From Minisyncoccota bacterium (GTDB lineage Bacteria > Patescibacteriota > Minisyncoccia > Phycocordibacterales > UBA1006): 64,000 bases of DNA. Both the position numbers and the translations under genes were made by a program. Positions 5,555 through 50,240 of the stretch are shown here, one piece after another; the first letter of the stretch is position 1; each line of letters opens with the position of its first letter. The notes below the pieces were generated by a model. That model made no database searches, was not told the DNA's origin, and was given only the letters and a program-made list of their open reading frames with translations. Where the stretch lies: NCBI GenBank assembly GCA_028697455.1, contig JAQVEZ010000002.1:89921-153920 (forward strand), given 5' to 3'.

Positions 5555-5761
5555 AAAGCTGTTAATAAACTTCTCATAAGTTCTGAACAATTTGTTAACA
5601 AAAAAGTTAATAAATAATATTCACAAAATTATTCAGTTTCCACATTTTTTATCCACAAGAAAAAAATAAAAAATCTCTTTAATTTATTAAACATTTTATT
5701 TAATCCCCAGAATTAACAGCCCTAATAATAGATAATAATTTTATTCTATTAAATTAATATT
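5555..5761. other. Candidate oriC / DNA-unwinding region in the dnaA-dnaN intergenic DNA
   Basis: A 207-bp, very AT-rich spacer. It contains a perfect DnaA box at 5649-5657 and three copies of the TTAATAAA motif. dnaA-dnaN is the conserved origin position. Confidence 0.5.
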
Positions 5762-10448: not shown

Positions 10449-10513
10449 AATTATTTTTACTTCTCACAAAAAACTTGCTCAAGAGAAGGGCGAGGTGATA
10501 TTCTAGTAAGAAT

Positions 10514-11725
10514 ATGAAGAAAATTAATTTTATATTATTATCAATATTTTTTATAAGTCTGGCGTTTTTGGGAACAGATGCGTATGCAAATGAAATCGAA
10601 TGGTCAAGCATCGAAGCTCCTGCACAAAATTCTTGGCGTGCTGTAACCTATGGTGAAGGGAAATTTGTTGCCGTTTCTACCGATGGAACAAATCGAATTA
10701 TGATTTCAGAAGACGGTAAAAACTGGGAAGTAACTCCAACTACTTGGGGAAGCCAATGGTTTACTGGAATTGCTTACGGGAACGGAGCTTTTGTTCTTGG
10801 AAATGCTTGGAATGGCAACATTTTCTATCGATCAATAGATGGAGGACAAACGTGGACAGGAGTTACCGGAGCCGCTAGTGGAGCTCAATTGGGAGACATT
10901 GCTTATGTTGACGGGGTTTTTGTTGCTGTTGATTATTCAAGAAGCTTTACTAATCAAGCAGCAGGTCAGCAAATATTCATTTCAAATGATGGATGGACGT
11001 GGGAAGCAAAAGGAGAATCAGCCAAGAAATACTGGCATGGTATTGCTTACGGAGATGGAAAAATTGTTATTGTAGGGGGGAAAGGAGAATCAGCAACTGA
11101 TGGAAAACACATTGGAGTATCCGAAGACAAAGGACAAACCTGGCAATACTTTGCGGCACCAGTGGCTGGAGGTGGTTATTGGACCAGTGTTGCTTACGGG
11201 AATGGTAAATTCGTAGCCGTCTCAGACGACGAGGGAGCTGCTCAAGACATTATTGTATCAAGTGATGGTAAGAACTGGACAGCCTACTCTTCTCCCGACA
11301 CCAAAGCATGGTGGGAAGATATTGCTTTCGGAAATGGATATTTTGTAATGGTATCGTATGACTACGATAATAATTTGAGTGAACCAGGAAAGGCTGTTGC
11401 TATCTCTAAGGACGGAATTAACTGGGAGACCGTTGATACAGTACCGGGTCACGGATATTACTCAGTTACTTTTGGAGACGATAAGTTTGTTGTCGTAGCC
11501 CTTGACTCTGATGATAATAATCGAATCTTTCTTGGAGAATTTCCTCCACAAAAAAGCCTTTCATCTTCCAATATCTTCGGAACCCGATTCTGTTCAGCAG
11601 AAGTTACCACCTTCTGTCGACCACAAAACGGATTTATGAATAATAATCCATTAGTAAATATCTACACTGAACTTTTGGGACTCTATCAACAACTCCTTTC
11701 TGCAATGCAGGGACAAAACAGCTAA
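10514..11725 (+). CDS. Secreted BNR/Asp-box repeat beta-propeller-like protein carrying the conserved C-terminal module (paralog A)
   Basis: Signal peptide MKKINFILLSIFFISLAFLGTDAYA. It has about 8 repeats of W..IAYGNGKFVAV and SxDGxxW. The C-terminal 55 aa (SSSNIFGTRFCSAEVTTFCRPQNGF…LLGLYQQLLSAMQ) are shared with the genes at 12043 and 22905. Confidence 0.75.
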   Translation: MKKINFILLSIFFISLAFLGTDAYANEIEWSSIEAPAQNSWRAVTYGEGKFVAVSTDGTNRIMISEDGKNWEVTPTTWGSQWFTGIAYGNGAFVLGNAWNGNIFYRSIDGGQTWTGVTGAASGAQLGDIAYVDGVFVAVDYSRSFTNQAAGQQIFISNDGWTWEAKGESAKKYWHGIAYGDGKIVIVGGKGESATDGKHIGVSEDKGQTWQYFAAPVAGGGYWTSVAYGNGKFVAVSDDEGAAQDIIVSSDGKNWTAYSSPDTKAWWEDIAFGNGYFVMVSYDYDNNLSEPGKAVAISKDGINWETVDTVPGHGYYSVTFGDDKFVVVALDSDDNNRIFLGEFPPQKSLSSSNIFGTRFCSAEVTTFCRPQNGFMNNNPLVNIYTELLGLYQQLLSAMQGQNS

Positions 11726-11821
11726 GGCTGTTTTTCTTTTGTGAGATTCTTGTTGATGTTTTGGAAATAGATTATAATAAAAGAGAGAAGATCCTCTTCT
11801 GTTGAGAATAAGTTGTTTAGG

Positions 11822-11848
11822 AGCCCGCTATTCCGTAGCGGGCTTTTT
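11822..11848 (+). terminator. Intrinsic terminator after paralog A
   Basis: Stem agcccgcta/tagcgggct with loop ttccg and a T-run. Confidence 0.7.
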
Positions 11849-11885
11849 GATATAAAAAGTTACCCACAGGTATCTTTTCTGATAC

Positions 11886-12010
11886 TTGACATTTATCTTT
11901 ATTGTGATAAATTTACTAATGAATCTAACCAATTTAACAACAACACACCGCTTTAACCAAGCACCTAAACCACAAGGCTCCCTTTCATTCGTGAAAGGGG
12001 CTTTTTTCTT
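11886..12010 (+). ncRNA. Candidate small RNA (promoter, CA-rich body, terminator)
   Basis: TTGACA at 11886-11891 followed by a -10-like tgtgataaat. The body is CA-rich (caacaacacaccgctttaaccaagcacctaaaccacaagg). It ends in the hairpin ccctttc-attcgt-gaaaggg plus a T-run at about 11980-12008. No plausible ORF spans it. Confidence 0.3.
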
Positions 12011-12042
12011 TATTTTATTTAATCTTGGTATACTAAAAGAGT

Positions 12043-12894
12043 ATGAAAAAATACGTTTTTACATCACTACTATCATTGTTCGTTATAGTAGGATTTACAA
12101 GCTTTATGAGTCCACACAAAGTTTCTGCTGATTTTGAAGAAGGTCCTGAGGTTGTTTTTGAGGATGGAGGAAGATCTATTGTTGCAACTTTTGATCATGT
12201 TTTTCTTTTTACTCTTAAATATTTTGAGGAGGAAGATGGTACTGGTTATGAATTTGAAGATATAAGTATTCAAAGTTCTAGTGATAAGTGCGAAACAGAA
12301 AATGATGGGGACATCTACACAATAAGTTGTTATCAAGATATTCCCTTTGAAGTACAGAGTATAGTTATTGATTTTATGTGGAAGGGAGAATCACAAGGTG
12401 GTTATGCTCCAACACTATCTTCTTCAGATGTCTATAACAGAGCATTTACTTACCCAGAAATAATCTTTGAAGAAGGTGGTAGAGTTGTTATTATCAATTT
12501 TGATTCTGAATTTTATTTTGATATTTGTTATTTTGATGACGATTGTCTAATATATCTTTCTGATGGGGATTCTCTTGGAGAGGAATGTGAGATTATAGGA
12601 GATTATTCTGTTCGTTGTGAACAAGACATTCCTAAAGGAGCACTCGGGGTTGGGGTAGATGTATACGATGGAGATGGGAACGATTTTTATGATGAATATC
12701 TTTTTTCAACTCATAATCCTTCCTCATCAAGTATTTCAAATATCTTCGGAACACGATTCTGTTCAGCAGGAGTTACGACTTTCTGTCGACCTCAAAATGG
12801 ATTTACGAATAATAACCCATTAATCAGTATCTATACTGAACTTTTGGGATTGTATCAACAACTCCTTTCTGCTCTTCAAAACGAAAACAGCTAA
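12043..12894 (+). CDS. Secreted acidic Cys-containing repeat protein carrying the conserved C-terminal module (paralog B)
   Basis: Signal peptide MKKYVFTSLLSLFVIVGFTSFMSPHKVSA, near-identical to paralog C. It has an internal two-fold repeat (FEEGPEVVFEDGGRSIVATFD… / IFEEGGRVVIINFD…). The C-terminal module is SISNIFGTRFCSAGVTTFCRPQNGFTNNNPLISIYTELLGLYQQLLSALQ. A TGGTATACT -10 element sits 8 nt before the ATG. Confidence 0.75.
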   Translation: MKKYVFTSLLSLFVIVGFTSFMSPHKVSADFEEGPEVVFEDGGRSIVATFDHVFLFTLKYFEEEDGTGYEFEDISIQSSSDKCETENDGDIYTISCYQDIPFEVQSIVIDFMWKGESQGGYAPTLSSSDVYNRAFTYPEIIFEEGGRVVIINFDSEFYFDICYFDDDCLIYLSDGDSLGEECEIIGDYSVRCEQDIPKGALGVGVDVYDGDGNDFYDEYLFSTHNPSSSSISNIFGTRFCSAGVTTFCRPQNGFTNNNPLISIYTELLGLYQQLLSALQNENS

Positions 12895-14843: not shown

Positions 14844-17159
14844 TTGTATAATAGAAAGAGCATGGCTGCTTTCGACGATAAGGAACAAAATAAAAAAATC
14901 CAAGACATCCGAGCGAAGGAAGAAGAAGCATTCACCGAAAAAATTGCAAAGAAATTTGACCTTCCTTATATTGATCTTACGGGAGCCACGATAGAAACAG
15001 ATGCTCTTTCTAAGGTAAAAGAAGAAGACGCGCGGAAAGCCCTCCTCGCTCCTTTTAAAATTGTTGGAAAAGATTTATATGTTGCGCTCAAGTCGCCTAA
15101 TCTCCCCGAAACAAAAAGAGTTCTTGATAATCTTGAAAAAGACTACAATCTTGGAATTCATCTTGCATCCCAACGAAGTCTTGAAAAAGCATGGGGGCGT
15201 TATGAAGACATTACCTTTACCTTTGGAATAGAAGGAGGGGTTTTAGATATTTCTGAAGAAGAAATCAAAAAACTCGCTGCAAAAATCAAAACCAACCAAG
15301 ACATTGCCTTTGAATTTGACCGGGTTCTTGCTTTGGGAGAAGAGCGAAAGGTAACGCGTCTTATGGAAATTATTTTTGCCGGAGCTATTGCAACCGATTC
15401 TTCTGATGTGCATATTGAAGCGCAAGACGGAAAGGTAAGACTTCGTTTCCGTCAAGATGGAGTTCTTCAAGATATTATTTATTTTGACCCAGCTACCTAC
15501 AAACAAATTCTTTCACGAATTAAGCTCCTTTCAGAAATGAAACTTACTCAAACAGAAAATGCTCAGGACGGAAGGTTTACGATTGATTACGATAAAAAAG
15601 AAATTGAAATCCGTGTATCGGTTGTTCCAGGAGCTTTTGGAGAATCTTTTGTGATGCGTATTTTGAATCCCGATGGGATTAAAGTTGGAGTTGAACATCT
15701 TGGAATCGAAAAACGTCTTTATGAAATCCTTCTCAAGGAAATCGAAAAACCAAACGGAATGATTTTGACAACCGGACCTACCGGATCAGGAAAGACCACA
15801 ACCTTGTATTCTTTTATGAACAAAGTCTATTCTCCTGAGGTAAAGATTCTCACGATTGAAGACCCTATTGAATATCGTATTGAAGGAATCAACCAAACAC
15901 AGGTAAATCGCCAAAAAGGCTACACTTTTTCTTCTGGACTCCGAGCGGCTTTGCGACAGGACCCAGATATTATCATGGTGGGAGAGATTCGAGACAGTGA
16001 AACGGCAAGTATCGCGGTGAACGCTTCACTTACGGGGCACTTGGTTCTTTCAACACTCCACACGAACAGTGCAGCAGGAGTTATTCCTCGACTCCTTGAC
16101 CTTGGAGTATCCCCACAAATCCTTGCGGCTGCCTTATCGGTTTCGATTGCTCAGCGTTTGGTTCGTAAGGTTTGTGAATCATGTAAAGAAATTGTTGCTC
16201 CAACACCAGAACAAGAAGGTATTATTAGAGACGTTTTGAGAGAAGCACAAAAGAACGAAAAACCTCTTCACGAATACGGAATCAGCGTAAACCAAAAAAT
16301 AGAACTCAGTCGCGGAAAGGGCTGTGAAGTATGTAATGGAACAGGATATAAAGGACGTATCGGACTTTTTGAAGCTATTATTACTGATGAATATATCGAA
16401 GAACTCCTCAACAAGAGCCCGTCCGAACAAGAAATTCGTCGTGTTGCCGAAAAGCAGAGACTTCTTAATATCCGTGAAGATGGGGTAGTAAAAATCCTTA
16501 ATGGAATTACTTCTTTTGAAGAAGTTCAAAAGGTGATCGATCTTGATATCAAAAATATCACCCAATTTAAAACTGATACAGAAACCTCTCAAGGAGAAAA
16601 TATTTCTTTGGTAAACGAAGAAAGTAATCTTCCTCAGCAAAATACTTTTGCAGAAATACCTGAAAGTTCCAAACCCATATCTCAAGAAAACAAAGAAGAA
16701 GAAAATCTTGAAAAACTCCTCGAAGAAGTAAGTAAAAAAATCGACCTTGTCAAAGGGTCTGTTATCCCAAGCAAAAAAATTATCCCCGAAGAAGGAGCCC
16801 AAATCTCTCAGATTCCCCCTGCTGCAATTCTTAATAACAAAAGTATTGAGATATCGCTTTTGATTGATTATTTAAGACGACTTGAGCAGGATCAAATTCT
16901 TCGTCCCGATGTTGATATCAGTAAACAGATCAAACAAGTACAGCTCACAATACTTGAGCTTCTCCAGCGGAAACAAGCAGAAAGTATTCTCAACGCACAA
17001 GGAAATTTTGCACAAGCACACAAAACCTATACCGAACTTGCTGATGAGCTTGATACGCTCTATCGAGAACAACTTCAGAACCCAGGAGTTGATATGTCAG
17101 AAAGGATTAAAAAAATCCGTGAAGAAATTGAGTACTATCATTCACAACAAAGTATCTAA
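14844..17159 (+). CDS. pilB: Type II/IV secretion ATPase (PilB/GspE family) with a long C-terminal coiled-coil extension
   Basis: N-terminal T2SSE_N-like domain and Walker A TGPTGSGKTTTLYSF. A zinc-binding tetra-Cys CESCKE…CEVCNGTG is present. The C-terminal extension is about 200 aa. Confidence 0.9.
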   Translation: MYNRKSMAAFDDKEQNKKIQDIRAKEEEAFTEKIAKKFDLPYIDLTGATIETDALSKVKEEDARKALLAPFKIVGKDLYVALKSPNLPETKRVLDNLEKDYNLGIHLASQRSLEKAWGRYEDITFTFGIEGGVLDISEEEIKKLAAKIKTNQDIAFEFDRVLALGEERKVTRLMEIIFAGAIATDSSDVHIEAQDGKVRLRFRQDGVLQDIIYFDPATYKQILSRIKLLSEMKLTQTENAQDGRFTIDYDKKEIEIRVSVVPGAFGESFVMRILNPDGIKVGVEHLGIEKRLYEILLKEIEKPNGMILTTGPTGSGKTTTLYSFMNKVYSPEVKILTIEDPIEYRIEGINQTQVNRQKGYTFSSGLRAALRQDPDIIMVGEIRDSETASIAVNASLTGHLVLSTLHTNSAAGVIPRLLDLGVSPQILAAALSVSIAQRLVRKVCESCKEIVAPTPEQEGIIRDVLREAQKNEKPLHEYGISVNQKIELSRGKGCEVCNGTGYKGRIGLFEAIITDEYIEELLNKSPSEQEIRRVAEKQRLLNIREDGVVKILNGITSFEEVQKVIDLDIKNITQFKTDTETSQGENISLVNEESNLPQQNTFAEIPESSKPISQENKEEENLEKLLEEVSKKIDLVKGSVIPSKKIIPEEGAQISQIPPAAILNNKSIEISLLIDYLRRLEQDQILRPDVDISKQIKQVQLTILELLQRKQAESILNAQGNFAQAHKTYTELADELDTLYREQLQNPGVDMSERIKKIREEIEYYHSQQSI

Positions 17160-17219
17160 ACACTCTTGACAAAGAGTGTTTTTACTTTATGATAAGGAAG
17201 AATTTAAAATATTTTAAAA

Positions 17220-17933
17220 ATGAAAATAAAAACATTGTATTTGGTGTTGACGGCATTTTTTCTGAGTGCTTGCGCAAGTAGCACTTACCAGAAGATGCCT
17301 CCACCGAACCTTCAGCTATCCTTTCAAAATTTACAGTTTGAAAGGATAGATCCTGTGTCCCTTGTAGGCGTCTATGTCTCGTTTACAACAGCGGGACAGT
17401 TCTACAAAGACTCGCGAGCCGATCGTGAGGAAGCAGTCGATGCGGGTGTTTACATCCAGCACGACATTCTGTCGGGCGAGAGTTTGTATCAACCACTGGT
17501 CACTCCTGTTTTATACCTTACTGGTAAGGATCAGGGAAAACCTGTTCGGGACAAACGAACTGGCAAGATCCTCACGGATGATTTCCTTGGTGAGATCGTC
17601 TCGGTTGAGATAATGGACGGAGGACTTCCCTTGTTCTGGGTACATATTGATTCTCCTACGGGAGGAGCGATTTTGCCCTTTGGGCTTAGAGAAAGCCCCA
17701 AGCAAAAGGGACGACTTCAGGACAAGTTCGTCCTGATGATTGATAACAAGAGCGTCAGCTCTGGGGGGAAGAATTTCTTTCCAATTACGGATCTCTCTGG
17801 ACAAACCTGGTTTGCTCAGAATCCTGGCATGGGATTGAGCAAAATCTATTTTGCGAAATCCTCGGAGAACCAATCAACCTCTGAGGTGGGAACCTCAAAA
17901 AAGGTTGGGTTACCCGCCATTCGGGAACAGTAA
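17220..17933 (+). CDS. Lipoprotein, hypothetical (first gene of the GC-elevated island)
   Basis: Lipobox LSAC with signal peptide MKIKTLYLVLTAFFLSAC. The local GC content is visibly higher than elsewhere in the window. Confidence 0.6.
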   Translation: MKIKTLYLVLTAFFLSACASSTYQKMPPPNLQLSFQNLQFERIDPVSLVGVYVSFTTAGQFYKDSRADREEAVDAGVYIQHDILSGESLYQPLVTPVLYLTGKDQGKPVRDKRTGKILTDDFLGEIVSVEIMDGGLPLFWVHIDSPTGGAILPFGLRESPKQKGRLQDKFVLMIDNKSVSSGGKNFFPITDLSGQTWFAQNPGMGLSKIYFAKSSENQSTSEVGTSKKVGLPAIREQ

Positions 17934-18091
17934 TAATTAAAACAAAAACCCCAATTCTTGGACTTTTCCACAGGAGAGGGGTTTTATTCTTGACAAGTTA
18001 TCTTAATTATGATAAGATATTATCAAGGCTGAGTTCTTTACAAGTTCATTTTATTTAATTTTGAGAGTTAATTGTTTTTTTCAATGTAAAG

Positions 18092-18152
18092 TCTCAGCTC
18101 TTTAGGGAGAGTAACAGCATTATTATTCCTAAAGAGCTGAGAATGGTTCTCA
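18092..18152 (+). promoter_or_regulatory. Perfect 15-bp stem hairpin in the 5' UTR of the 18181 gene
   Basis: tctcagctctttagg (18092-18106) pairs exactly with cctaaagagctgaga (18128-18142), enclosing a 21-nt loop. A second hairpin, gagaa-tgg-ttctc, follows. A TTGACA promoter lies at about 17989. Confidence 0.5.
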
Positions 18153-18180
18153 GTAATTCAAAACTCAAAAAATTAAAAAA

Positions 18181-19140
18181 ATGAAAAAAATCTTTTTTTT
18201 GTTCATTGCAATACTGGGTATTGTGGTGAACGCAAATTATCTGGCTCCTGAAGGTTATTTTGTCCTTGAGGGAAGAACACAGGCAATGCCCAATGTGAAT
18301 TGGCTGGCCTCAGAAATGAACCCAACCAATTTTCCCATCTATGCACAGGAAAACAATAGTATGGGAGCATACTTTAACTATTCTTTCGTTCAGGATGGGA
18401 GAGTGATGGGTACTGAAAGGATTCACCTTTCGGATCAGATAGTAGCGTCCATTGGGCGCCACTTGTCAAATCCGAGAACCGGAGAGTCTTTGTCATCCGT
18501 TTGTGCCCGACAGGGAGGGCAATTTAATGCTGTTAATCGTATCGCTTTGCAATACGCACAACAGCAGATACCTGCTCCTCAGCAGCAATGCTGTCCTACG
18601 CCAGCCCCCCAACAAACTCAAATTGAGTATGTGGATAGACCTGTTTATATACAGGATCCACAAACCAATGAGATGTTGGCTCAATTACAAGCTGACAACG
18701 TTCAGCTTGAAAAACAACTGAGACGCAACCAGACCTGGACCCATATTTGGGGAGGGGTGAACCTGGCGGCGACAGCAGTAGACGGGTATTTGACTCGTCG
18801 TGAGATTAAAAAAAGAAACCGCCCTGTTAACTATAATTATAAAATAGTTAACAATACTCGTACCACCAATAATACCTATAATAATGGTGGAACGACTGGT
18901 AGTGGTGAGACCTGGACTGGAAACGGTTCAGGAAACGAGAACGGTGGTAGCTGGAATCCGAACAACAATCCCGGAAATAACAACGGGAATGGTTCGGGAG
19001 CCGATCCCTTTGGGAGAGGCTATCAGCAAGGAAGTGGATACTCACAAGGCTATTCGTCTATGACGAGCCAGGTGAGAACATCAGCTTCTGGAAGAAGCTC
19101 AAACGGAACAAAATCCGTGCGCTTCCAGAAGAAGCGTTAA
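18181..19140 (+). CDS. Secreted low-complexity (N/G/T/Q-rich) hypothetical protein
   Basis: Signal peptide MKKIFFLFIAILGIVVNA. The C-terminal half is NNTYNNGGTTGSGETWTGNGSGNENGG…. The GC content is elevated. Confidence 0.55.
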   Translation: MKKIFFLFIAILGIVVNANYLAPEGYFVLEGRTQAMPNVNWLASEMNPTNFPIYAQENNSMGAYFNYSFVQDGRVMGTERIHLSDQIVASIGRHLSNPRTGESLSSVCARQGGQFNAVNRIALQYAQQQIPAPQQQCCPTPAPQQTQIEYVDRPVYIQDPQTNEMLAQLQADNVQLEKQLRRNQTWTHIWGGVNLAATAVDGYLTRREIKKRNRPVNYNYKIVNNTRTTNNTYNNGGTTGSGETWTGNGSGNENGGSWNPNNNPGNNNGNGSGADPFGRGYQQGSGYSQGYSSMTSQVRTSASGRSSNGTKSVRFQKKR

Positions 19141-19159
19141 GCAAAATTTAAAACAACAA

Positions 19160-19186
19160 GAGCCTTACGAGTTAAGGCTCTTTTTT
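19160..19186 (+). terminator. Intrinsic terminator
   Basis: Stem gagcctta/taaggctc with loop cgagt and a T6 run. Confidence 0.7.
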
Positions 19187-19254
19187 ATTGCACCAAAACA
19201 TTGACAAGAGACTCTTACAATGCTATTTCTAGGGTAAATATAAAAAAATTAAAG

Positions 19255-20055
19255 ATGAAAAAAGTTTTCTTTTTCTTTGTTGTGCTTTTTTCAAGCTTTG
19301 CGCTTGAGGCACAACGAAATGACGGGGTTGCCCGTCCGACCCGAGGTGCTTTTTGGGATCAGGGCTGCGACGGCTCCATATCCAAGTACGTCGAAAATAA
19401 TCTTGGACCAGGGACTTACTCTGTAGAGTGTGGCGGAATTTCTTATTCCATTGTTGTTGAGCAGATGTGGGATAAAGATACTAAAATTCTTTTCCGTGAT
19501 GGAAATTTTTCCGAAAGAAATCGTAACTGGGTTACGATTTACGGAAAAAAAATCTGGAGATATTCAAGCTCAAATGACTGGACCCTTGCAGATTGTGGAA
19601 ATCGTATCTACGATATCTCTCGTGGACCAAAAGATCTCCAAGGAGGAGGGCTTGTTGTTACTGGCGATAACGGATGTAATTGTCCCGAGCCAAAAGTAAA
19701 GGACTATCAGTTCGAAACGACACCCTTGCGGGGGACAAATACTCCTATGTATTATTTTCCTCCACAACCCCAACAGCCAATGTACGCTTTTGACCAAAAT
19801 GCGTTCTTACCAAAGCAAAAAACTTGGATGGGGAGAAATTGGGGATGGTTTGTTCCACTTCTTGCTGTTGGCGTTGGTACGGGAACGTATTTCCTGATAG
19901 ACGCACTCAACAGCAACCACAGCTCAAGCAACCCACCACCTGATGATGGAGATGGTGATGAGACCTGGGGTCCGAACGACTCTGGGAGTGAACGAGGAAA
20001 AGTGTATACCGTTCCAACCCCTTCAAGAGGGTTTGTTATTCCTATTTTCCAGTAA
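19255..20055 (+). CDS. Secreted Cys-containing hypothetical protein with a C-terminal TM anchor
   Basis: The likely start is the Met at 19255 (MKKVFFFFVVLFSSFALEAQ signal peptide); the ORF track begins at 19201. A TM segment WGWFVPLLAVGVGTGTYFLI lies near the C-terminus. The GC content is elevated. Confidence 0.55.
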   Translation: MKKVFFFFVVLFSSFALEAQRNDGVARPTRGAFWDQGCDGSISKYVENNLGPGTYSVECGGISYSIVVEQMWDKDTKILFRDGNFSERNRNWVTIYGKKIWRYSSSNDWTLADCGNRIYDISRGPKDLQGGGLVVTGDNGCNCPEPKVKDYQFETTPLRGTNTPMYYFPPQPQQPMYAFDQNAFLPKQKTWMGRNWGWFVPLLAVGVGTGTYFLIDALNSNHSSSNPPPDDGDGDETWGPNDSGSERGKVYTVPTPSRGFVIPIFQ

Positions 20056-20067
20056 AAGAGGGAAAAC

Positions 20068-20076
20068 TGTGGATAA
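20068..20076 (-). promoter_or_regulatory. Perfect DnaA-box 9-mer (TGTGGATAA on the + strand) upstream of the large surface protein gene
   Basis: Exact reverse complement of TTATCCACA, immediately after the 19255 gene's stop. Confidence 0.45.
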
Positions 20077-20099
20077 CTTTTAAAAAGTAAAAGGTGTAG

Positions 20100-20128
20100 T
20101 TGACAACTACATCTTTTTTTGCTATGAT
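20100..20128 (+). promoter_or_regulatory. Sigma70 promoter (TTGACA, 17-nt spacer, TATGAT)
   Basis: Consensus spacing, upstream of the 20165 gene. Confidence 0.55.
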
Positions 20129-20164
20129 ACACTTGTTATTCATTATAATTTATCACGACATAAC

Positions 20165-22804
20165 ATGAATCAATTTATCAAAAAATTTGTACAAATTGCA
20201 GTACTTACCGGATCCCTCGTTATTGCAGGGAATGCTTTGGCTGCAAATTTTGACCCCCAACCAATGGGGAATCATGGTTTTACAACCATTAACACCAATT
20301 GTTCACAAGATTGTGCAAATCAAAAAAACAGTATTTCATACAACGAGCTTCCAGCAAGCAAGGAATTTACTGTGTATTTGAATTTTCACAATAATACCCC
20401 TGGGCATATTACTAATGCTGCAGGAAAGGTGAGCTATGCTTCATCTGGAAGTTCAGGGTCTGCGACTTTCACCGGACAGCTTTCTGGGTCAGGAGCATCA
20501 ACTATTACTGACACAGCGACTATTACAAACCTTCCATCAAGTTGGCAAATTCAATTTGTTTCTGGTTTTGTAAGAGTAGAAGAACACTACAGTAACCAAG
20601 GAACTCCCTGTACTGGGACTTTTCCTGGAACATGGCCATGGCAACATAGTTTTTCAAACCCTTCTAATGCACCAATAGGAACACTTCATTACTTTAATGC
20701 TAATGAAGGAGGATGGTGTGATCAAGGATATGTTTTTGCAAAATTTAAAATCGTTGATACCACCGTTAATGATCCAACACCAGTAAACGGTCAGTGTCGT
20801 GTTTATAATGGAACCTACTCCTCACAACCTGCAACGAACACCGCAACTGGATGTCTTGCAGGAACCTATCAAGATACACAGGACACTCAAACACAATGGA
20901 GATGGCAATGTAACGGATTGCATGGTGGAGCAACAACCAGTTGTTCTGCCGCAAAGCAAACCATTAACCAACCAGAGTATAGTTATGCCTGGGGATGGAG
21001 TGCCTGGGGATCCTGTATTAACAACATTCGAACAAGAACAGCTCAGTGTTTACGAACAGAAGTAGGAACTCAAGGACCGTCAAACCCTGTTGTGGTAAAT
21101 GATAGTTACTGTATCCAAAATGTTGGGCCAAAACCAGCACCACAAACTCAATCTTGTTCAGGAACACCTTCTGAAGATACTCTTTCTATTGAAACCTTAG
21201 GAGCAACGAATATTACCCAATCAAGCGCAAAGCTTAATGGACGAGTTCTTGCGGGAAGTACTAACTATGTTTACTTTGTATTAGGAACTAACAGTAACAA
21301 TCTTACCTGTTCTTCTAATAACAAATATTTCCCTTATGATTTCAACATTAACCGAAATGCTGGGGATATGTTTAGCTATACTTTCCCTAACGGAAGTTTG
21401 AGCAGCAACTCAACCTATTACTACCGAGCATGTGCCCAAGGAGTTACCGGAATTACTCCAGGACAAATTGTTTCTTTCAAAACAAAAAAAGCTTCATCAA
21501 ATGAAAATCACGTTGAGATCGTTACCGAAGCGCCACAATCAGTAACCAAGACAACAGCTGATCTCTGTGCGAACCTTGTTGAGGATGGAGGGAGTCAAGT
21601 TCAAACATGGATTGAATATCGAAAGAGTTCAGCAAACTCATGGTCAGAGACACCTACTCATCAACGATATGCAGGATACTTCTGTCAGTCAGTTACAGGG
21701 CTTTCTTCAAACACTTCATACGTGTATCGAGCATGTACTCCAGAGGGATGTGCTTCAACCAGAACCTTTAAGACTCTTTCTTCTGGGTCTGGAAGCTATG
21801 ATCCAGGAGAAGCTCCCATTATTATTACTGACGACCCAACAAACGTTCGAAGTAACGGAGCAATCCTTAACGGTACTTATGTAACTAACGCACCAAGTGG
21901 AACCTGTTGGTTCGAATACGGACGAACAGCCAACCTTGGAAGCCAAACACGAAGCTATTCTGTGGGAAGCGGATATGGAACCTGTGTTCATAACTTTACT
22001 AATCTTGCAGCAAATCAGCTTTACTGTGTACGAGCCGTTATTCAGACCGTAAATGGAACTTCACGAGGAGGAATAAAATGTTTCACTACACCAGGAACTA
22101 CTTATACTGGAGGAGGAACAGTCTATGTACCTCCACGAGTTGTTGTTGTTGAAGAAAACCCACAAGTAGACCTCTCTGCTCTTGGACTAGGACTTTCTTT
22201 GGTGAGACTCAATATCGATGATCACAATGATGTTGTTTTTCCAGGACAACAAGTTATGTATGAGGTAACATGGGAAAATATTTCTCATATTGATCTTGAT
22301 AACTTGCAACTCAAGGTTACTATTCCTTCAAAAATCACTATCACCAGTGCTTCACGAGGACGAATTAACCCAGAGGACAACAGTATTCTCTATATGATTA
22401 GTGACCTTCGTTCAGGAGAGCGAGGAGAGCTTACCATTGGAGGACTTGTTGGGAAACCAACCATAGGAACCGCACTTACTGCACAAGCAGAACTTGCGTA
22501 TAAAAACCCTATTAACTTTGCACAAGAAAATGCTCTTGATTTTGACATCAACGATGTTGGAACAAGAATTGCAGGAGTAACGGCTTCTATCTTTGGATTA
22601 GGAAATATTACCTTCCTTGGATGGCTTGTAATTCTCCTTGGACTCTTTATTATCTTCTTGATTGCTCGGTATCTTTACCTTGAACGAGAAGAATTGAGAG
22701 CTCAGGCATATATGAGTGGATATTCACCATATAACAATCCACCAAACTTTAACCCACGACCTCAAGACGATTATTACAATCCGTATCGACCAAATCGTGG
22801 ATAA
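20165..22804 (+). CDS. Large Cys-rich cell-surface protein with a C-terminal TM anchor and a Pro/Tyr/Asn-rich tail
   Basis: 879 aa with signal peptide MNQFIKKFVQIAVLTGSLVIAGNALA. The body has many Cys and repeated blocks of about 90 aa (fibronectin-III-like by pattern). A TM segment FLGWLVILLGLFIIFLIARYL is followed by the tail YSPYNNPPNFNPRPQDDYYNPYRPNRG. Confidence 0.7.
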   Translation: MNQFIKKFVQIAVLTGSLVIAGNALAANFDPQPMGNHGFTTINTNCSQDCANQKNSISYNELPASKEFTVYLNFHNNTPGHITNAAGKVSYASSGSSGSATFTGQLSGSGASTITDTATITNLPSSWQIQFVSGFVRVEEHYSNQGTPCTGTFPGTWPWQHSFSNPSNAPIGTLHYFNANEGGWCDQGYVFAKFKIVDTTVNDPTPVNGQCRVYNGTYSSQPATNTATGCLAGTYQDTQDTQTQWRWQCNGLHGGATTSCSAAKQTINQPEYSYAWGWSAWGSCINNIRTRTAQCLRTEVGTQGPSNPVVVNDSYCIQNVGPKPAPQTQSCSGTPSEDTLSIETLGATNITQSSAKLNGRVLAGSTNYVYFVLGTNSNNLTCSSNNKYFPYDFNINRNAGDMFSYTFPNGSLSSNSTYYYRACAQGVTGITPGQIVSFKTKKASSNENHVEIVTEAPQSVTKTTADLCANLVEDGGSQVQTWIEYRKSSANSWSETPTHQRYAGYFCQSVTGLSSNTSYVYRACTPEGCASTRTFKTLSSGSGSYDPGEAPIIITDDPTNVRSNGAILNGTYVTNAPSGTCWFEYGRTANLGSQTRSYSVGSGYGTCVHNFTNLAANQLYCVRAVIQTVNGTSRGGIKCFTTPGTTYTGGGTVYVPPRVVVVEENPQVDLSALGLGLSLVRLNIDDHNDVVFPGQQVMYEVTWENISHIDLDNLQLKVTIPSKITITSASRGRINPEDNSILYMISDLRSGERGELTIGGLVGKPTIGTALTAQAELAYKNPINFAQENALDFDINDVGTRIAGVTASIFGLGNITFLGWLVILLGLFIIFLIARYLYLEREELRAQAYMSGYSPYNNPPNFNPRPQDDYYNPYRPNRG

Positions 22805-22811
22805 TACCAAA

Positions 22812-22832
22812 AAACACCTTCGGGTGTTTTTT
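22812..22832 (+). terminator. Intrinsic terminator
   Basis: Stem aacacc/ggtgtt with loop ttcg and a T-run. Confidence 0.65.
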
Positions 22833-22859
22833 GATATGGAACAAAGAGTACAAAAGTTT

Positions 22860-22902
22860 TTGACAAAAAATTGACTCGGGGGGGGGGGCAGGGTGATATA
22901 CT
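22860..22902 (+). promoter_or_regulatory. Promoter of paralog C with a G11 homopolymer tract in the -35/-10 spacer
   Basis: TTGACA at 22860-22865 and TTGACT at 22871-22876. The G x11 tract runs 22878-22888. An extended -10 TGATATACT lies at 22894-22902, with 20 nt between TTGACT and TATACT. The G-run is unique in the window. Confidence 0.6.
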
Positions 22903-22910
22903 AGATGAGT

Positions 22911-24209
22911 ATGAATAAACATATTTTTACGTCACTACTATCGTTATTTGTGATAGTAGGTTTTACAAGTTTTATTAACCCACACACGGTTTCTGCTCAA
23001 CCTATCGAATGGGAGGAGTTTGATTTGAGTCCTGATAATTATAATTCTATTGCTTACGGAAATGGAGTGTATGTTGTGGTCGGGGATGAAGCCTCAATGT
23101 ACTCCTCTGACGGAAAGAATTGGTACCCAGCAATGACCTCGTTGGCGGGAGTCCTGTACTCCGTTGTTTATGGAGATGGAAAATTTGTCGCAGTAGGAAG
23201 CAGCAACAACACAAGTACAAGCAATCCTGTAGCTTATACCTCTACAGATGGAGTAATATGGAGTCCTTCTTTTGAGGCCTTGCCCCCTAAAGTAAATACT
23301 GGAGCTGGGCTTAAAAAAGTTTCCTATGTCTATGACAATATCAACGAAAAAAACCTTTTTGTCGCAGTAGGATCTGACTTATCTAATCTTTTAGGAGGAA
23401 GTCAGATTCCTTACATTATTTATTCTTCTAATGGAAACGAGTGGTTTAAGGCTACCTTACCAATGGGGGTTAATGGTACCGCTTCAGATTTAACAGGAGG
23501 TTATAATGAAGATGGAGAGGTCGTTTTCCTATCTTCAGTAGCAACAAACCCCCTTCTCTCTTCATCAAATATTATTATGTCTACTAATGGTGGAGCAAAT
23601 TGGTTCTATCCAGACGACGCTCTTACAGGACTTGACGGTTTTAGCGGGGCAGCTATGAGCTACCTTAATGGAGAATTTTTTCTTGGAGGAACTATTTCTG
23701 ATATGGGAAGTAAGCTTATTTATGTAATGTCTTCATCGGATGGATTCAATTGGGAGCAGCATGAAGTTGGGTCAACTGTCTCATTTTTTCCTAGATTCAA
23801 TTTTGCATATGGAAATGATAATTATATATCGATAGGGGCAGAAGAATCAATATATTCTTTGGGTGGAGAAAATTGGGAATTTTTTACTCCAAGTTTTGAC
23901 AAGAGCACTGATTTTGGAGTCTATCCAATACAATTAATTTATGCAGATGATTCCTTTGTTCTTTTGGGACAAAATGAATTAGGAGAATCTATTGTTGCTT
24001 TTCCTAAACGCCTGAACGATTCATCAGAAGGGCTTTCTTCAAAATCTTCAAGCATTTTTGGAACACGATTTTGTTCAGCAGGAGTTACGACTTTCTGTAG
24101 ACCACAAAACGGATTTGTGAACAACAACCCATTGATTAGTATTTATACTGAACTTCTGGGACTGTACCAACAACTCCTTTCTGCGATGCAGAGTGAAAAT
24201 AGCTTATAA
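22911..24209 (+). CDS. Secreted BNR/Asp-box-like repeat protein carrying the conserved C-terminal module (paralog C)
   Basis: Signal peptide MNKHIFTSLLSLFVIVGFTSFINPHTVSA. Repeats such as YSVVYGDGKFVAVG and SxDGxxW are present. The C-terminal module is SSIFGTRFCSAGVTTFCRPQNGFVNNNPLISIYTELLGLYQQLLSAMQ. The ORF-track start at 22905 is 2 codons upstream. Confidence 0.75.
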   Translation: MNKHIFTSLLSLFVIVGFTSFINPHTVSAQPIEWEEFDLSPDNYNSIAYGNGVYVVVGDEASMYSSDGKNWYPAMTSLAGVLYSVVYGDGKFVAVGSSNNTSTSNPVAYTSTDGVIWSPSFEALPPKVNTGAGLKKVSYVYDNINEKNLFVAVGSDLSNLLGGSQIPYIIYSSNGNEWFKATLPMGVNGTASDLTGGYNEDGEVVFLSSVATNPLLSSSNIIMSTNGGANWFYPDDALTGLDGFSGAAMSYLNGEFFLGGTISDMGSKLIYVMSSSDGFNWEQHEVGSTVSFFPRFNFAYGNDNYISIGAEESIYSLGGENWEFFTPSFDKSTDFGVYPIQLIYADDSFVLLGQNELGESIVAFPKRLNDSSEGLSSKSSSIFGTRFCSAGVTTFCRPQNGFVNNNPLISIYTELLGLYQQLLSAMQSENSL

Positions 24210-24252
24210 GAGCTGTTTTTTTATTTTCGGATTTTGTTAGTATAAGAACTGT

Positions 24253-24702
24253 ATGGAAACCTTCCTTATCAAAAATAAAAAGGAACTCGATTCTTTTGCT
24301 GATAATTTTTTGACAAAATTTGAACCTTCTTTAGAGGGAGCAAGCTTAGTACTTCTTGAAGGAGATCTTGGCTCTGGAAAAACAACCTTTGTTCAATCGT
24401 GTGCAAGGTATTTTGGTATTGAAGAAGCTCTGACAAGCCCGACTTTTGTTATCCAAAAATCCTATCCAATAAAAGCTCATCAGAATTTTCACAAGCTGGT
24501 TCACATTGATGCCTATCGTTTGGATGGACACAAAGACCTTGAATATCTTGGCTGGGAAGAATTGATTCAAGAAAAGGGGATAATTATTTTTTTGGAATGG
24601 CCTCTGATTGTTTCTGGGATTCATTTTCCTCACGATACGGTATCATTATCCTTCTCAATTCTCGAAAACGAAGAGAGAAAAATCATTTTTTCAAAGAAAT
24701 AA
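24253..24702 (+). CDS. tsaE: tRNA t6A biosynthesis ATPase TsaE (YjeE)
   Basis: P-loop GDLGSGKTTFVQ and SPTF motif, 149 aa. Confidence 0.8.
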   Translation: METFLIKNKKELDSFADNFLTKFEPSLEGASLVLLEGDLGSGKTTFVQSCARYFGIEEALTSPTFVIQKSYPIKAHQNFHKLVHIDAYRLDGHKDLEYLGWEELIQEKGIIIFLEWPLIVSGIHFPHDTVSLSFSILENEERKIIFSKK

Positions 24703-24735
24703 AAGACTCGTTGTGTGATATAATCAAAGAAGAAT

Positions 24736-27090
24736 ATGTCTTCTCGTAAGGAAAAAATCGTTCTTCTTGACGCTCACGCTATTATCCACAGGGCTTATCA
24801 CGCACTCCCTGGTTTTTCAACGAGGACCGGTATGCCAACAGGGGCTATTTTTGGCTTTGGGTCAATGATTCTGAGAATTATTGGCGATCTCAAGCCAGAC
24901 TATGTTATTGCGTGTTATGACCTTCCAGGGAAGACCTTTCGTCACGAAGCTTTTGATGAGTATAAGGGAACGAGAGGAGAAACTGATGATTCTCTCAAAT
25001 TACAATTTGATGCGACACGAGAGATGTGCGAAGCTCTTGATATTCCTATATACGACGCAGAAGGCTTTGAAGCAGATGATATCTTGGGGACCATCAGCGC
25101 AAAACTCAAGAGTTCTAATATCGACGTTGTCATTGCTTCTGGAGATATGGATACCTTACAACTGGTTGATGGTGAGAAGGTTCAGGTTTTTACTCTCAAG
25201 AAAGGACTCAACGATACGGTTGTCTATGACGAAAAGGCTGTTCGTGAGCGTTTTGGTTTTGCCCCAATTTCTATTGTTGATTTTAAAGCTCTTCGAGGAG
25301 ATGCTTCTGATAACATTCCAGGGATTAAGGGGATAGGAGAAAAGGCAGCAACAATCGCTATTACTCATTTTGCTACTATTGAAAACCTCTATGCAGCTCT
25401 TGAAAAAAACGAACAAGACCTTCTTGATGCAGGGCTTACCCAGAGAATGGTAACCCTTATTCGAGAAGGAAAAGAAGACGCTGAGTTTTCAAAAATTCTC
25501 GCGACGATTAGGAAAGATGCTCCCATACATTTTAAACTTCCAAAACAAAAATGGGGAGAAGCACTTTCTATGGAAAAAACTCTTGAGATTTTTGAACGCT
25601 ATGAGCTTCATAGTCTTGGAAAACGTCTTAAGACGTTGCTCCACATTGAAGATGAGAAAGAACAAATCAAAGAAAATTTTTCTGAAGAAGATTTAAAAAA
25701 ACTCGCACTCAAATTGTGGGTTCTTGATTCTGATGAGACGGATGCGTCTTTTATAGAAATCAAAGAGTACACCAAAGAAAAAACTTTTTCTCGAGCTCAA
25801 AAGAAAATAGACACAGAGCTTGCACAAGACGCAAGAGTCAAGGAAGTTTATGATTATATTGAAGAACCCCTTTTTCCCATTGTTCAACAAATGCAAAAAA
25901 CAGGCGTTGCTATTGATGAGAAGTTTTTTAAACAACTTAAATCAGAATATGCTGAGTGTTTAACAAAGCTTGAAGAGAAAATTTTTCAATTTTCTTCTGA
26001 GCCTTTTAATATTAAATCTCCAAAACAGCTTTCAAAAGTCCTTTTTGAAGATCTTGCGTTACCAACAAAGGGAATCAAAAAATTACAATCAGGATCATAT
26101 AGTACCAATGTTGACACCCTTGAAAAACTCGCAGAAGCCCATCCTATTATTCCTCTTTTGGTTGAGTTTCGTGAATTTGAGAAACTCCTTTCAACATATA
26201 TTGAAGTTATTCCCACTATGGTTGCCGAAGACAAACGTCTTCATGCTGAATTTCTTCAAAATGGAACATCTACTGGTCGTTTTTCTTCTCGAAATCCAAA
26301 TCTCCAAAACATTCCTACACGAACCGAGAATGGTCAAAAAATACGACAAGGGTTCGTTGCAGAAAAAGGCTATTCATTTATTTCTTTTGACTATTCTCAG
26401 ATCGAGTTAAGGTGTTTGGCACTCCTTTCAGGAGATAAAGCGCTCACAAAGATTTTCAAAGAACACGATGACATTCACTCGGGAGTCGCTGCGCTCATTG
26501 GTGGTGTTCCTATCAACGAAGTAACCAAAGAAATGCGAAGGAAGGCAAAGATTATAAACTTTGGAATTCTTTATGGAATGGGAATAAACTCCCTCAAGAA
26601 AGAGATGGATGTTTCAAGAGAGGAGGCCGAAAGTTTTTATTACGGGTTTTTTGACCAGTTTCCTGATGCGACAAAATATCTCGAAGATGCCAAGGAGCTT
26701 GCACGGAAACGGGGTTACACGGAAACCTTCTTTGGAAGAAGACGACAGTTTAAAAACATCAATTCAAAGCTCCCCTTTATTCGTGCAATGGCAGAGAGAA
26801 TGGCTCTCAATGCACCGATACAGGGAACTTCTGCTGATATGATTAAACTTGCTATGATCCATATCCACCAATGGCTTGAGGAGCAGCACTTACTTGAAAA
26901 TATTCGTCTCGTTCTCCAGATTCATGACGAAATTATTTATGAGGTTGAAGATAGTCTTTGTTCTCAGTTTGAACAAAAAGCACAAGAAATTATGGAAAAT
27001 GTTCTTGAAATTTCTTACAAAAAAGTAAAATCAGAAGTACCTTTTGTTGTAAAATCGAGTGTTGGTAAAAATTGGGGAGAGCTGAAGTAG
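24736..27090 (+). CDS. polA: DNA polymerase I (5'-3' exonuclease plus polymerase domains)
   Basis: FEN-like N-terminus. Polymerase motifs DYSQIELR, RRKAKIINFGILYGMG and QIHDEII. Confidence 0.93.
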   Translation: MSSRKEKIVLLDAHAIIHRAYHALPGFSTRTGMPTGAIFGFGSMILRIIGDLKPDYVIACYDLPGKTFRHEAFDEYKGTRGETDDSLKLQFDATREMCEALDIPIYDAEGFEADDILGTISAKLKSSNIDVVIASGDMDTLQLVDGEKVQVFTLKKGLNDTVVYDEKAVRERFGFAPISIVDFKALRGDASDNIPGIKGIGEKAATIAITHFATIENLYAALEKNEQDLLDAGLTQRMVTLIREGKEDAEFSKILATIRKDAPIHFKLPKQKWGEALSMEKTLEIFERYELHSLGKRLKTLLHIEDEKEQIKENFSEEDLKKLALKLWVLDSDETDASFIEIKEYTKEKTFSRAQKKIDTELAQDARVKEVYDYIEEPLFPIVQQMQKTGVAIDEKFFKQLKSEYAECLTKLEEKIFQFSSEPFNIKSPKQLSKVLFEDLALPTKGIKKLQSGSYSTNVDTLEKLAEAHPIIPLLVEFREFEKLLSTYIEVIPTMVAEDKRLHAEFLQNGTSTGRFSSRNPNLQNIPTRTENGQKIRQGFVAEKGYSFISFDYSQIELRCLALLSGDKALTKIFKEHDDIHSGVAALIGGVPINEVTKEMRRKAKIINFGILYGMGINSLKKEMDVSREEAESFYYGFFDQFPDATKYLEDAKELARKRGYTETFFGRRRQFKNINSKLPFIRAMAERMALNAPIQGTSADMIKLAMIHIHQWLEEQHLLENIRLVLQIHDEIIYEVEDSLCSQFEQKAQEIMENVLEISYKKVKSEVPFVVKSSVGKNWGELK

Positions 27091-27117
27091 ACAGAAGTTA
27101 TTTTAAATTCATTACCA

Positions 27118-27800
27118 TGTTGTATCTTTTTTTTGGAAATAAAAATAAAATAAAAAAAGAAACCGAGAGTCTTCTTCAGTCACGAACTGTTGATGTGTAT
27201 CATTTGTACGAAGAGGATTTTGTAGAGAAATCTTTTTTTGAGCTGACGTCTTTTCAGAAAGGACTTTTTGATGATACCAAGGTGTATATTATTCACGAAG
27301 CTTCTTCTCATGTTCCTCTCAAAAAAATTCTTCCCGAGTGTGCATCTTCTGAGAATATTTTTATTTTTTCAGAAGAAAAAGCCCCCAAAGCTACTCGAGA
27401 ATTGTTTGAAAAAAACAATGGAGAGATTAAGGATTTTTCAGAAAAAATCTTGCAAAAGAAAAATGAAGCTTTCAATATTTTTTCTCTTACTGATCTTTTG
27501 GGAAGGAGAGACAAAAAGGCTTTGTGGCTTTCTTTCCAAGAAGCAAAAAAAGAAAGTAGTCCAGAAGAAATTCATGGCGTCTTGTGGTGGGGACTTAAAA
27601 ATCTTTTTCTTGTAAAATCCTCTCCTACAAAAAATCCAGGAATGAGCCCCTATGTATATCAAAAGAATCTTAGTTTTGCAAAAAATTTTGAAGAGAAAGA
27701 ACTTCTTTCTCTTGCGGACACGCTCGTTCGTATGTTCCACGAGAGAGATTCGGTAAGTTCTCTTGAAATAGAGCTTGAGAAATTTATCTTAAATATATAA
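27118..27800 (+). CDS. holA: DNA polymerase III delta subunit-like (short HolA)
   Basis: MLYLFFGN N-terminus and a C-terminal IFSLTDLLGRRDKKALWL…WWGLKNLF matching the delta-subunit pattern. The ORF-track start at 27072 overlaps polA, so an internal Met is preferred. Confidence 0.5.
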
Positions 27801-27837
27801 AAACCAAACAATTCTCATTGTTTGGTTTTTATAGTAT

Positions 27838-27913
27838 TGGTCCCCCCGGTAGGGATCGAACCTACGACCGTCAGCTTAAAAGGCTGCTGCTCTACCAGCT
27901 GAGCTACAGGGGG
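27838..27913 (-). tRNA. tRNA-Lys (anticodon TTT)
   Basis: Minus-strand sequence CCCCCTGTAGCTCAGCTGGTAGAGCAGCAGCCTTTTAAGCTGACGGTCGTAGGTTCGATCCCTACCGGGGGGACCA. The cloverleaf folds, the anticodon loop is CTTTTAA, the T-loop is TTCGATC, and CCA is encoded. Confidence 0.9.
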
Positions 27914-27954
27914 AGATGTATACTCTATTTATTTAAAGTATTTTGTTACATTGT

Positions 27955-28170
27955 GCTCATTCAGCAGCCTTTTCTTAAAAGGCGTTCGGCGTGCCGTTAA
28001 GGCACCCCTCACCTCCACCAGCTGAGCTACAGGGGGAGATGAATGTTATGTATCCCTCAAAAATTTTATTTCAAAATTCTCACGAAGCAGCCTTTTCTTA
28101 AGAGGTGTTCGGCGTGCCGTTAAGGCACCCCTCACCTCTACCGACTGAGCTACAGGGGGATATCTAACAA
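27955..28170 (-). repeat. Two tandem degenerate tRNA-Lys-derived repeats (tRNA 5' half fused to GC-rich palindromes)
   Basis: The units end at 28044 and 28166 on the minus strand and repeat CCCCCTGTAGCTCAG(C/T)(T/C)GGT(G/A)GAG of the tRNA. They then diverge into GTGAGGGGTGCCTTAACGGCACGCCGAAC and the palindrome GCCTTTT-AAG/CTT-AAAAGGC. Neither has a T-arm or a 3' acceptor strand. The period is about 120-130 bp. Confidence 0.6.
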
Positions 28171-49655: not shown

Positions 49656-50240
49656 TTATGCTTTTGAAACTCGTTCGGTATAAGAACCCGTTTCAGTATT
49701 AAGAGCAATAACGTCTCCCGTGTTAATAAAGAGAGGAACGGTTATTTTATATCCGGTTGAGAGCGTTACTAATTTGTCTCCGCCCGTTGCAGTATTTCCT
49801 TTGATAGATGGGGGGGCCTCAACAACCTCAAGCTCAACGCGAATAGGAAGTTTGAGCCCAATAATTTTTTCCTCACCCTCATCATTGGTAAAGACGATGG
49901 CTTCAATGGTATCTTTTTCCTTAATAAAATTGAAGGCATTTCCAACAACTTCTTCAGTCAAAGCAAAACGGTCACGAGGATTTCCTTCTGGGTGAAAATA
50001 AAATTCTGGTCCTTTTCGGTAAATATACGAAATATTTTTTCGTGACATATCTGCTTCTTCGGCAGTATCAGATGATTGGAAAGTATACTCAATGACTCTT
50101 CCTGATATGAGCGATTTGAGCTTAGTTTTATTTACTGGTTTTCGTTGTTGCTGTCGAGAAACCTGTGAATCAACAACCTCAAAAGGCTCATTGTTAAGGA
50201 TAATATATTTTCTTTCTTTGATTTCGTTATAATTTAACAT
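49656..50240 (-). CDS. efp: Elongation factor P
   Basis: 194 aa with a three-OB-domain pattern and the KPVNKTKLKSLISGRV loop region. Confidence 0.9.
   Translation of the reverse strand: MLNYNEIKERKYIILNNEPFEVVDSQVSRQQQRKPVNKTKLKSLISGRVIEYTFQSSDTAEEADMSRKNISYIYRKGPEFYFHPEGNPRDRFALTEEVVGNAFNFIKEKDTIEAIVFTNDEGEEKIIGLKLPIRVELEVVEAPPSIKGNTATGGDKLVTLSTGYKITVPLFINTGDVIALNTETGSYTERVSKA

Follow-up and report, generated by a model that had tools for sequence, protein, structure and literature searches.

The stretch of DNA considered here (the window) comprises 64,000 nt of contig JAQVEZ010000002.1 (positions 89,921 to 153,920, forward strand) of assembly GCA_028697455.1, from an ultra-small, uncultivated Minisyncoccota bacterium of the Patescibacteriota. 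Upstream of one of its genes, PHC89_01515, which encodes a putatively secreted beta-propeller protein, lies an uninterrupted run of 11 G residues. The question raised by this locus is whether that run acts as a switch for the gene, as a preliminary description had proposed, or slips with little consequence for expression. The comparisons reported below make it likely that the tract is a hypermutable repeat forming part of a sigma-70-type promoter spacer and that it serves as a slipped-strand switch for PHC89_01515.

A direct read of the window gives TTGACAAAAAATTGACTC-G11-CAGGGTGATATACTAGATGAGTATGAATAAA for the locus. The tract, the -35 element TTGACT, the extended -10 element TGATATACT and the 20-nt spacer between the two hexamers (bp 22877-22896) are all found where the preliminary description had placed them (Table 1). 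Its statements that no other G or C run of at least 9 nt exists in the 64 kb and that such a run is very unlikely by chance also hold: G11 is the sole G or C run longer than 7 nt, the other runs of at least 6 nt being three of G6, three of C6 and a single G7 (bp 49810-49816), and the expected count of G11 runs in the window is 0.0009 if bases are taken as independent and 0.004 by a first-order Markov model. The G + C content of the window is 37.8%, slightly above the approximately 36% given earlier. No open reading frame (ORF) of at least 60 aa overlaps the tract on either strand.

The upstream regions of the 48 ATG-start genes of the window were aligned and indicate where the tract lies with respect to the transcript. 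In 41 of these genes, as against 27% of random positions, a -10-like hexamer is followed by the ATG at a distance of 3-13 nt (mode 6-9), and 16 of the 41 carry the extended TGn motif, while a Shine-Dalgarno (SD) core is found in a single gene of the 48. Examples of leaderless-type upstream regions are those at 7121, 7649, 24736, 32484, 54848 and 59356. Judged from this alignment, the genome is almost entirely leaderless; the anti-SD motif has been detected in only 48% of Parcubacteria (PMC9297842). At PHC89_01515, TATACT ends 8 nt before the ATG at bp 22911 and, given the genome-wide pattern, is predicted to be the promoter of a leaderless mRNA, which places the tract in the promoter spacer and not in a 5' untranslated region (UTR). 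On the other side of the tract, the gene for an 879-aa surface protein (stop codon at bp 22802-22804) is followed by an intrinsic terminator, a hairpin built of an A-tract, a GC stem, a UUCG loop and a T-tract. Since this terminator ends at bp 22837, approximately 70 nt remain for a promoter. The predicted promoter of PHC89_01515 therefore has the tract between its -35 and -10 elements; it is preceded by a terminator, and the ATG follows 8 nt after the -10 hexamer. The promoter-spacer position proposed earlier is thus supported by the terminator, by the leaderless pattern and by the -10 element and its 8-nt distance to the ATG, which are conserved in three lineages. A promoter scan restricted to spacers of 16-18 nt did not list this promoter, the spacer of which is 20 nt. 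One correction is needed: the gene had been given a start at ATG 22905, but the real start is ATG 22911, as in the NCBI protein (P0001), and ATG 22905 is absent in two other lineages.

This arrangement bears on the possibility that the tract acts on translation from within a 5' UTR, either as part of an SD-like GGGTGAT serving ATG 22905 or as a G-quadruplex, G11CAGGG. GGGTGAT, 7 nt before ATG 22905, is similar to the SD consensus, and G11CAGGG fits the G3+N1-7 motif. However, apart from the rarity of SD cores in the window and the frequent lack of an anti-SD in Parcubacteria noted above, the lineages designated B and C below have neither ATG 22905 nor GGGTGAT nor the fourth G run, and an Rfam search found no family match at the tract locus. 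In addition, no promoter with a proper -10 box was found between the terminator and the tract. Because ATG 22905 and GGGTGAT are missing from two lineages, an SD or 5'-UTR element was rejected. An intramolecular G-quadruplex was also rejected, as the fourth run is present only in lineage A (that of the window), the corresponding sequences being G12CAGAGG in lineage B and G9CAGAAT in lineage C. We therefore regard a role of the tract in translation as very improbable.

Homologous loci in relatives were reached via neighbouring proteins and exclusively as Logan contigs, so that the lengths given here are those of assembled contigs; exact look-ups of the PHC89_01515 protein itself, in its 434-aa and 432-aa versions and as P0001, matched no contig. 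The tract recurs in contigs of eight sequencing runs from four accession series, and lengths of 9, 10, 11 and 12 G were found between identical or nearly identical flanks, in support of the hypervariability predicted by the preliminary description. In lineage A, contigs of SRR22315504, which represent the strain of the window in another assembly, span bp 16165-22961 and 22936-28013 of the window, and the presence of G10 in place of G11 is the sole difference over 9,657 + 5,078 aligned bases (14.7 kb). All 24 A/T runs of 7-8 nt in the same aligned region are unchanged. The break between the two contigs of this lineage (L002 and L001) falls in repeated signal-peptide sequence, outside the tract. 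Lineage C (SRR217220xx) is 95.7% identical to the window and itself carries two lengths. G9 is found in SRR21722018 (the contig of which was also recorded in a second sample), SRR21722020 and SRR21722015, and creates a near-consensus promoter, TTGACT-17 nt-TATAAT. G10 is found in SRR21722012; when contigs L005 and L018 are compared, their 1,334 nt contain no mismatches and one gap, which is in the tract. A further contig of lineage C (L016, SRR21722009) ends inside the tract, after ten G residues, and is the one hint of length changes within a clonal population. In lineage B (SRR28106885, 95.1% identical), the promoter reads TTGACT-C-G12-CAGAGGA-TATAAT-8 nt-ATG, with a 20-nt spacer. Length polymorphism among identical or nearly identical genomes is thus seen as G10/G11 and as G9/G10, with G12 in another lineage, and the observed spacers range from 17 to 20 nt. 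For an analysis of sequence alone, such polymorphism between identical flanks is unusually direct evidence.

Could these lengths be produced by two-color Illumina poly-G noise or by homopolymer miscalls, with no real variation behind them? Homopolymers of at least 10 nt are error-prone, and one contig ends within the tract. On the other hand, the contigs of the eight runs carry the tract internally, between flanks that are unique on either side. G9 was recovered in three separately fetched runs, which shows that assembly calls at the tract are not random noise, and the G12 contig was recorded in two samples. Moreover, the lineages combine distinct lengths with distinct linked substitutions. 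We conclude that the tract is not an artefact, an explanation that had been raised with the original proposal and that now seems barely credible.

The sequence around the tract has evolved unevenly. Between lineages, the 22 nt that separate the tract from the ATG (bp 22889-22910, compared with contigs L004 and L005) differ by 5-6 substitutions and one indel, a divergence of approximately 25% as against 2-5% in flanking DNA (4 of 73 positions upstream and 5-7 of 300 in the start of the coding sequence). Three lineages nevertheless retain both hexamers, -35 and -10, and the 8 nt between the latter and the ATG. This combination of a divergent tract-to-ATG segment with a retained -10 suggests that the core promoter is being tuned rapidly, or that gene conversion occurs between promoters of the protein family to which PHC89_01515 belongs.

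A second locus carries the same promoter module. In a fourth strain (lineage D, SRR31966184, contig L019), CACAAAAAACTTGACTC-G11-TAAGGTGATATACT precedes a different member of the family, P0008, which lies downstream of a penicillin-binding protein gene in a position equivalent to window 10514. The promoter there reads CACAAAAAAC-TTGACT-C-G11-TAAGGTGA-TATACT-9 nt-ATG. As a G11 promoter is thus found before two different family members at two loci, the poly-G promoter appears to be a recurring module of the family. In the window and in lineage C, the second locus instead has TTGCTC-AAGAGAAGGGCGAGGTGA-TAT(T/A)CT, an interrupted purine-rich tract in a fixed 18-nt spacer, with AAGAGAAGGGCGAGG occupying the tract position in the window. 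This promoter could be a locked (non-slippery) derivative of the switch or its precursor. Comparison of homologous loci, which had been suggested in the preliminary description, therefore yielded G9, G10 and G12 at the original locus and a further G11 at the second. The exact 24-nt promoter pattern had no match in GTDB representative genomes or JGI metagenomes.

From the tract, its place among conserved promoter elements, the leaderless architecture, the polymorphism between identical flanks and the second locus, we infer a slippage mechanism, its reversibility and rate, and a dependence of transcription on tract length. The tract is uninterrupted and of slip-prone length (at least approximately 8 nt; G11 in the window and G9 to G12 elsewhere). 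Slipped-strand mispairing during replication would add or remove G residues, and each G would change the spacing of the -35 and -10 elements by 1 nt, together with their helical phasing, and so alter transcription. Spacers of 17-18 nt (G9 and G10 in lineage C and, as predicted, G8 and G9 in the lineage of the window) would correspond to an ON or high state, while those of 19-20 nt (G10 and G11 in the lineage of the window, G12 in lineage B) would correspond to a low or OFF state. The TTG-type -35 boxes of the window, which are present in 7 of the 41 promoters, lie 16-18 nt from the -10. A population would in this way maintain subpopulations with and without the surface protein, as expected of a contingency locus.

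Several observations weigh against such a switch. First, three of the four lineages have spacers of 19-20 nt, the predicted low or OFF state, a distribution that agrees with a contingency locus but would fit equally well if spacer length had no effect. Second, the -35 element is weak or absent in most promoters of the window. Given that -35 boxes are optional and that the -10 is of the extended type in lineages A and D, tract length may have a graded or mild effect and not an all-or-none one. Third, the family members 12043 and P0006 lack a tract and have a plain TGgTATACT promoter. Fourth, the metagenome-assembled genome (MAG) and the Logan assembly of SRR22315504 may share reads, and their G10/G11 difference could in part reflect consensus calling of a noisy homopolymer. 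Fifth, the retention of an uninterrupted tract of 9-12 nt in three lineages is, alone, not statistically significant at a mean divergence of 5%.

Some of these points would be accommodated if the tract were a neutral hotspot that slips while the promoter runs on its (extended) -10 alone, so that length barely affects expression. In E. coli, an extended -10 (TGn) makes promoters largely independent of the -35. Most promoters of the window lack a conserved -35, TGn is common among them and the promoter of PHC89_01515 has it (TGaTATACT); likewise, 19-20 nt separate the consensus elements in three lineages. However, the -35 hexamer, which matches the consensus at five of six positions, is strictly conserved in all assemblies and at the second locus, although neighboring bases have diverged by approximately 25%. 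The promoters of lineages B and C lack TGn and should need a -35, and G9 gives a spacer of exactly 17 nt with TATAAT. Finally, DNA of 38% G + C that has no other long G run carries one twice before the same gene family. Based on these observations, a neutral hotspot is unlikely.

A different transcriptional mechanism might also be at work, in which the tract sets the distance from an activator site to the -10 or alters DNA structure or melting near the -10. A second -35-like hexamer, TTGACA, lies 11 nt 5' of the -35 box and forms with it a direct repeat, TTGAC-N6-TTGAC (TTGACAAAAAATTGACT; bp 22860-22876), of 11-bp period (TTGACA-N5-TTGACT), which is conserved in lineages A to C and could be a candidate activator site. 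Poly-G promoters that act other than by spacing have been described (PMC7864442). At Treponema pallidum tprL and tprE/G/J, the tract is proposed to alter DNA structure or melting next to the -10. Against an activator site, the second locus has both the tract and TTGACT, but the upstream TTGACA copy is missing there, with CACAAAAAAC in its place, and the repeat pattern is not enriched within the 64-kb window. Such a mechanism is, in our judgment, decidedly improbable, and a spacer-length switch is the reading followed below.

Table 1. Features of the poly-G locus and of related promoters in the window (coordinates in bp of the window).
Feature	Position	Strand	Evidence or comparison
Poly-G tract, G11 (variable element)	22878..22888	+	Sequence; G9, G10, G11 or G12 across assemblies
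-35 element TTGACT, 5 of 6 consensus matches	22871..22876	+	Invariant in every assembly of the locus; also in the second-locus promoter of lineage D
Extended -10 TGATATACT (TGaTATACT; hexamer 22897-22902)	22894..22902	+	Lineages B and C have TATAAT in this place
Second -35-like hexamer TTGACA, 11 nt 5' of the -35 box	22860..22865	+	Sequence; retained in lineages A to C
Intrinsic terminator following the gene for the 879-aa surface protein	22804..22837	+	Inverted repeat; RNA fold -15.3 kcal/mol, z = -3.4; all lineages
Putatively regulated gene PHC89_01515, 432 aa	22911..24209	+	Identical to NCBI protein of a 'Candidatus Pacebacteria bacterium' MAG; starts MNK...
C-terminal module (IFGTRFCSAGVTTFCRPQNGF.NNNPL..IYTELLGLYQQLL), common to the family	24042..24206 (or from 24036)	+	Family alignment
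Homologous promoter of member 10514..11725: TTGCTC-18 nt (AAGAGAAGGGCGAGGTGA)-TATTCT-9 nt-ATG	10475..10513	+	Comparison with lineage D (L019)
Promoter of third family member (12043..12894): TGgTATACT-8 nt-ATG, no tract	12026..12042	+	Sequence

The PHC89_01515 protein consists of a Sec-type signal peptide (aa 1-29), a beta-propeller (aa ~33-365), a disordered linker and a C-terminal module (aa ~378-432). The signal peptide (MNKHIFTSLLSLFVIVGFTSFINPHTVSA/QP) comprises an N-terminal hydrophobic helix (modelled at residues 3-22) followed by VSA/Q and is conserved across the family. No lipobox cysteine is present, and the product is thus not a lipoprotein; from its sequence, it is predicted to be surface-exposed or secreted. 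The description of the gene as encoding a secreted member of a family with a conserved C-terminal module is upheld by the signal peptide and the module, its localization being predicted. The accompanying label of "BNR protein" is upheld only loosely. There are approximately six SxDGxxW Asp-box-like repeats, the columns of which are nearly invariant in the family alignment, and an AlphaFold2 model built on that alignment (mean predicted local distance difference test score 77.8) has a confidently modelled propeller at residues 33-365, followed by a disordered linker and a C-terminal helix. However, searches of Pfam and NCBIfam gave no significant family for the protein: BNR and sialidase models were not significant and only DUF6242 was matched, with an E-value of 0.006. 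The top PDB matches of the model were the lectin 6gxs and sialidase/glycosidase-like propellers (template modelling score ~0.5), which identify a generic modelled propeller and no specific enzyme.

The C-terminal module is approximately 50 aa in length and contains two Cys residues followed by an amphipathic helix. Paralogues with 33-60% identity elsewhere hardly differ in the module, which had only 15 matches among 1.84 billion representative proteins and none among the Pfam or NCBIfam models. It may serve, in this lineage specifically, as a signal for sorting or anchoring. Three members of the family are encoded in the window (at 10514, 12043 and 22911) and the paralogues P0002 (PHC89_01105), P0003 (PHC89_00200) and P0004 are found on other contigs of the MAG; scans of GTDB representative genomes and JGI metagenomes with the family alignment returned no member. 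Among the neighbors of the gene at 22911 is one for a type IV pilus ATPase, and several others encode secreted or membrane proteins.

When strains are compared over the region of the other two members (window 10514-12894, L019:2001-3193 and L021:7001-8225), the promoter and signal peptide at the 5' end and the C-terminal module at the 3' end are conserved and the central propeller is replaced (by that of P0008 in L019). Both L019 and L021 lack gene 12043, the junction lying within the C-terminal module. These sequences suggest that the family behaves as cassettes, with recombination between the conserved ends.

Two further observations concern the window as a whole. The second-longest G/C run, the G7 mentioned above, lies inside a minus-strand ORF (49656..50240; C7 on the coding strand) and is too short to be called a switch. 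In addition, rnpA (minus strand), dnaA and dnaN are clustered at bp 3522-6862 (with Pfam families listed for the syntenic locus L021), and the replication origin is probably near 3.8-4.2 kb. From this position, the poly-G tract would be approximately 19 kb into the right replichore, with its G-rich strand as the leading strand.

Switches of the kind proposed here are known from other bacteria. In Neisseria meningitidis porA and T. pallidum tp0126, a poly-G tract separates the -35 element from the -10, and the optimum spacer is 17 nt (PMC7864442). The promoter of PHC89_01515 resembles these in having a G tract in a sigma-70-type spacer upstream of a surface-protein gene, with steps of a single G, and G9 in lineage C gives the same 17-nt spacing. 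It differs in that it belongs to uncultivated Patescibacteria (Paceibacteria) with leaderless mRNA and an optional -35 and precedes a gene for a secreted beta-propeller with a lineage-specific C-terminal module instead of a porin or OmpW.

The Mycoplasma hyorhinis vlp genes offer a parallel at the level of the family: each vlp promoter contains a poly-A tract that governs whether the gene is ON or OFF, and the members share their 5' end (PMC10502178). Both are surface multigene families with a shared promoter and signal peptide in a genome-reduced, host-dependent bacterium; here, the poly-G module precedes two family members at two loci, and the signal peptide and C-terminal module are common to the family. 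Unlike the vlp system, the tract is of G and not A and is missing from some members (12043 and P0006), a beta-propeller takes the place of tandem repeats as the variable part, and the products are not lipoproteins.

Two other comparisons are more distant. In the Bordetella pertussis fimbrial genes fim2 and fim3, a poly-C tract lies between an activator site and the -10, and BvgA is required. The similarity to these surface-appendage genes is that a homopolymer upstream of the -10 sets promoter geometry by its length; in contrast to the BvgA-dependent promoters, the candidate direct repeat described here is missing at the second locus. Campylobacter jejuni and Helicobacter pylori have AT-rich genomes with G/C homopolymers of 8-13 nt that are associated with surface structures and are hypervariable between and within strains (reviewed in PMC11868660). 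Those tracts are for the most part inside genes and act by frameshift, whereas the tract described here is in a promoter.

The mechanism itself is thus classical. Literature searches for phase variation by simple sequence repeats in the Candidate Phyla Radiation (CPR) or Patescibacteria returned unrelated mentions only, and those on leaderless translation in the CPR returned nothing specific beyond the loss of the anti-SD in Parcubacteria; within the searchable literature, such a switch is apparently undescribed in Patescibacteria. The leaderless genome is of practical importance for gene calling and promoter prediction in MAGs of this type, as gene callers and promoter models tuned to SD sequences will misplace starts, the choice between ATG 22905 and ATG 22911 being an example.

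We also put forward, with somewhat less than even confidence, a broader proposal. The family may constitute a surface-variation system similar to vlp, in which the promoter and signal peptide at the 5' end and the 50-aa module at the 3' end would serve as a portable poly-G switch and as recombination handles for swapping or deleting the central domain. With such a system, an uncultivated episymbiont could vary its surface combinatorially, to attach to hosts or to evade phages; if confirmed, no contingency-locus system would have been described earlier in the CPR. The Patescibacteria are a very large group of mostly uncultivated, host-attached bacteria, the surface regulation and variation of which are largely unknown. 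If PHC89_01515 is indeed switched by its poly-G tract, these bacteria would use the bet-hedging logic of reduced-genome pathogens such as Neisseria, Treponema and Mycoplasma, and this protein family would likely be important for contact with hosts or phages.

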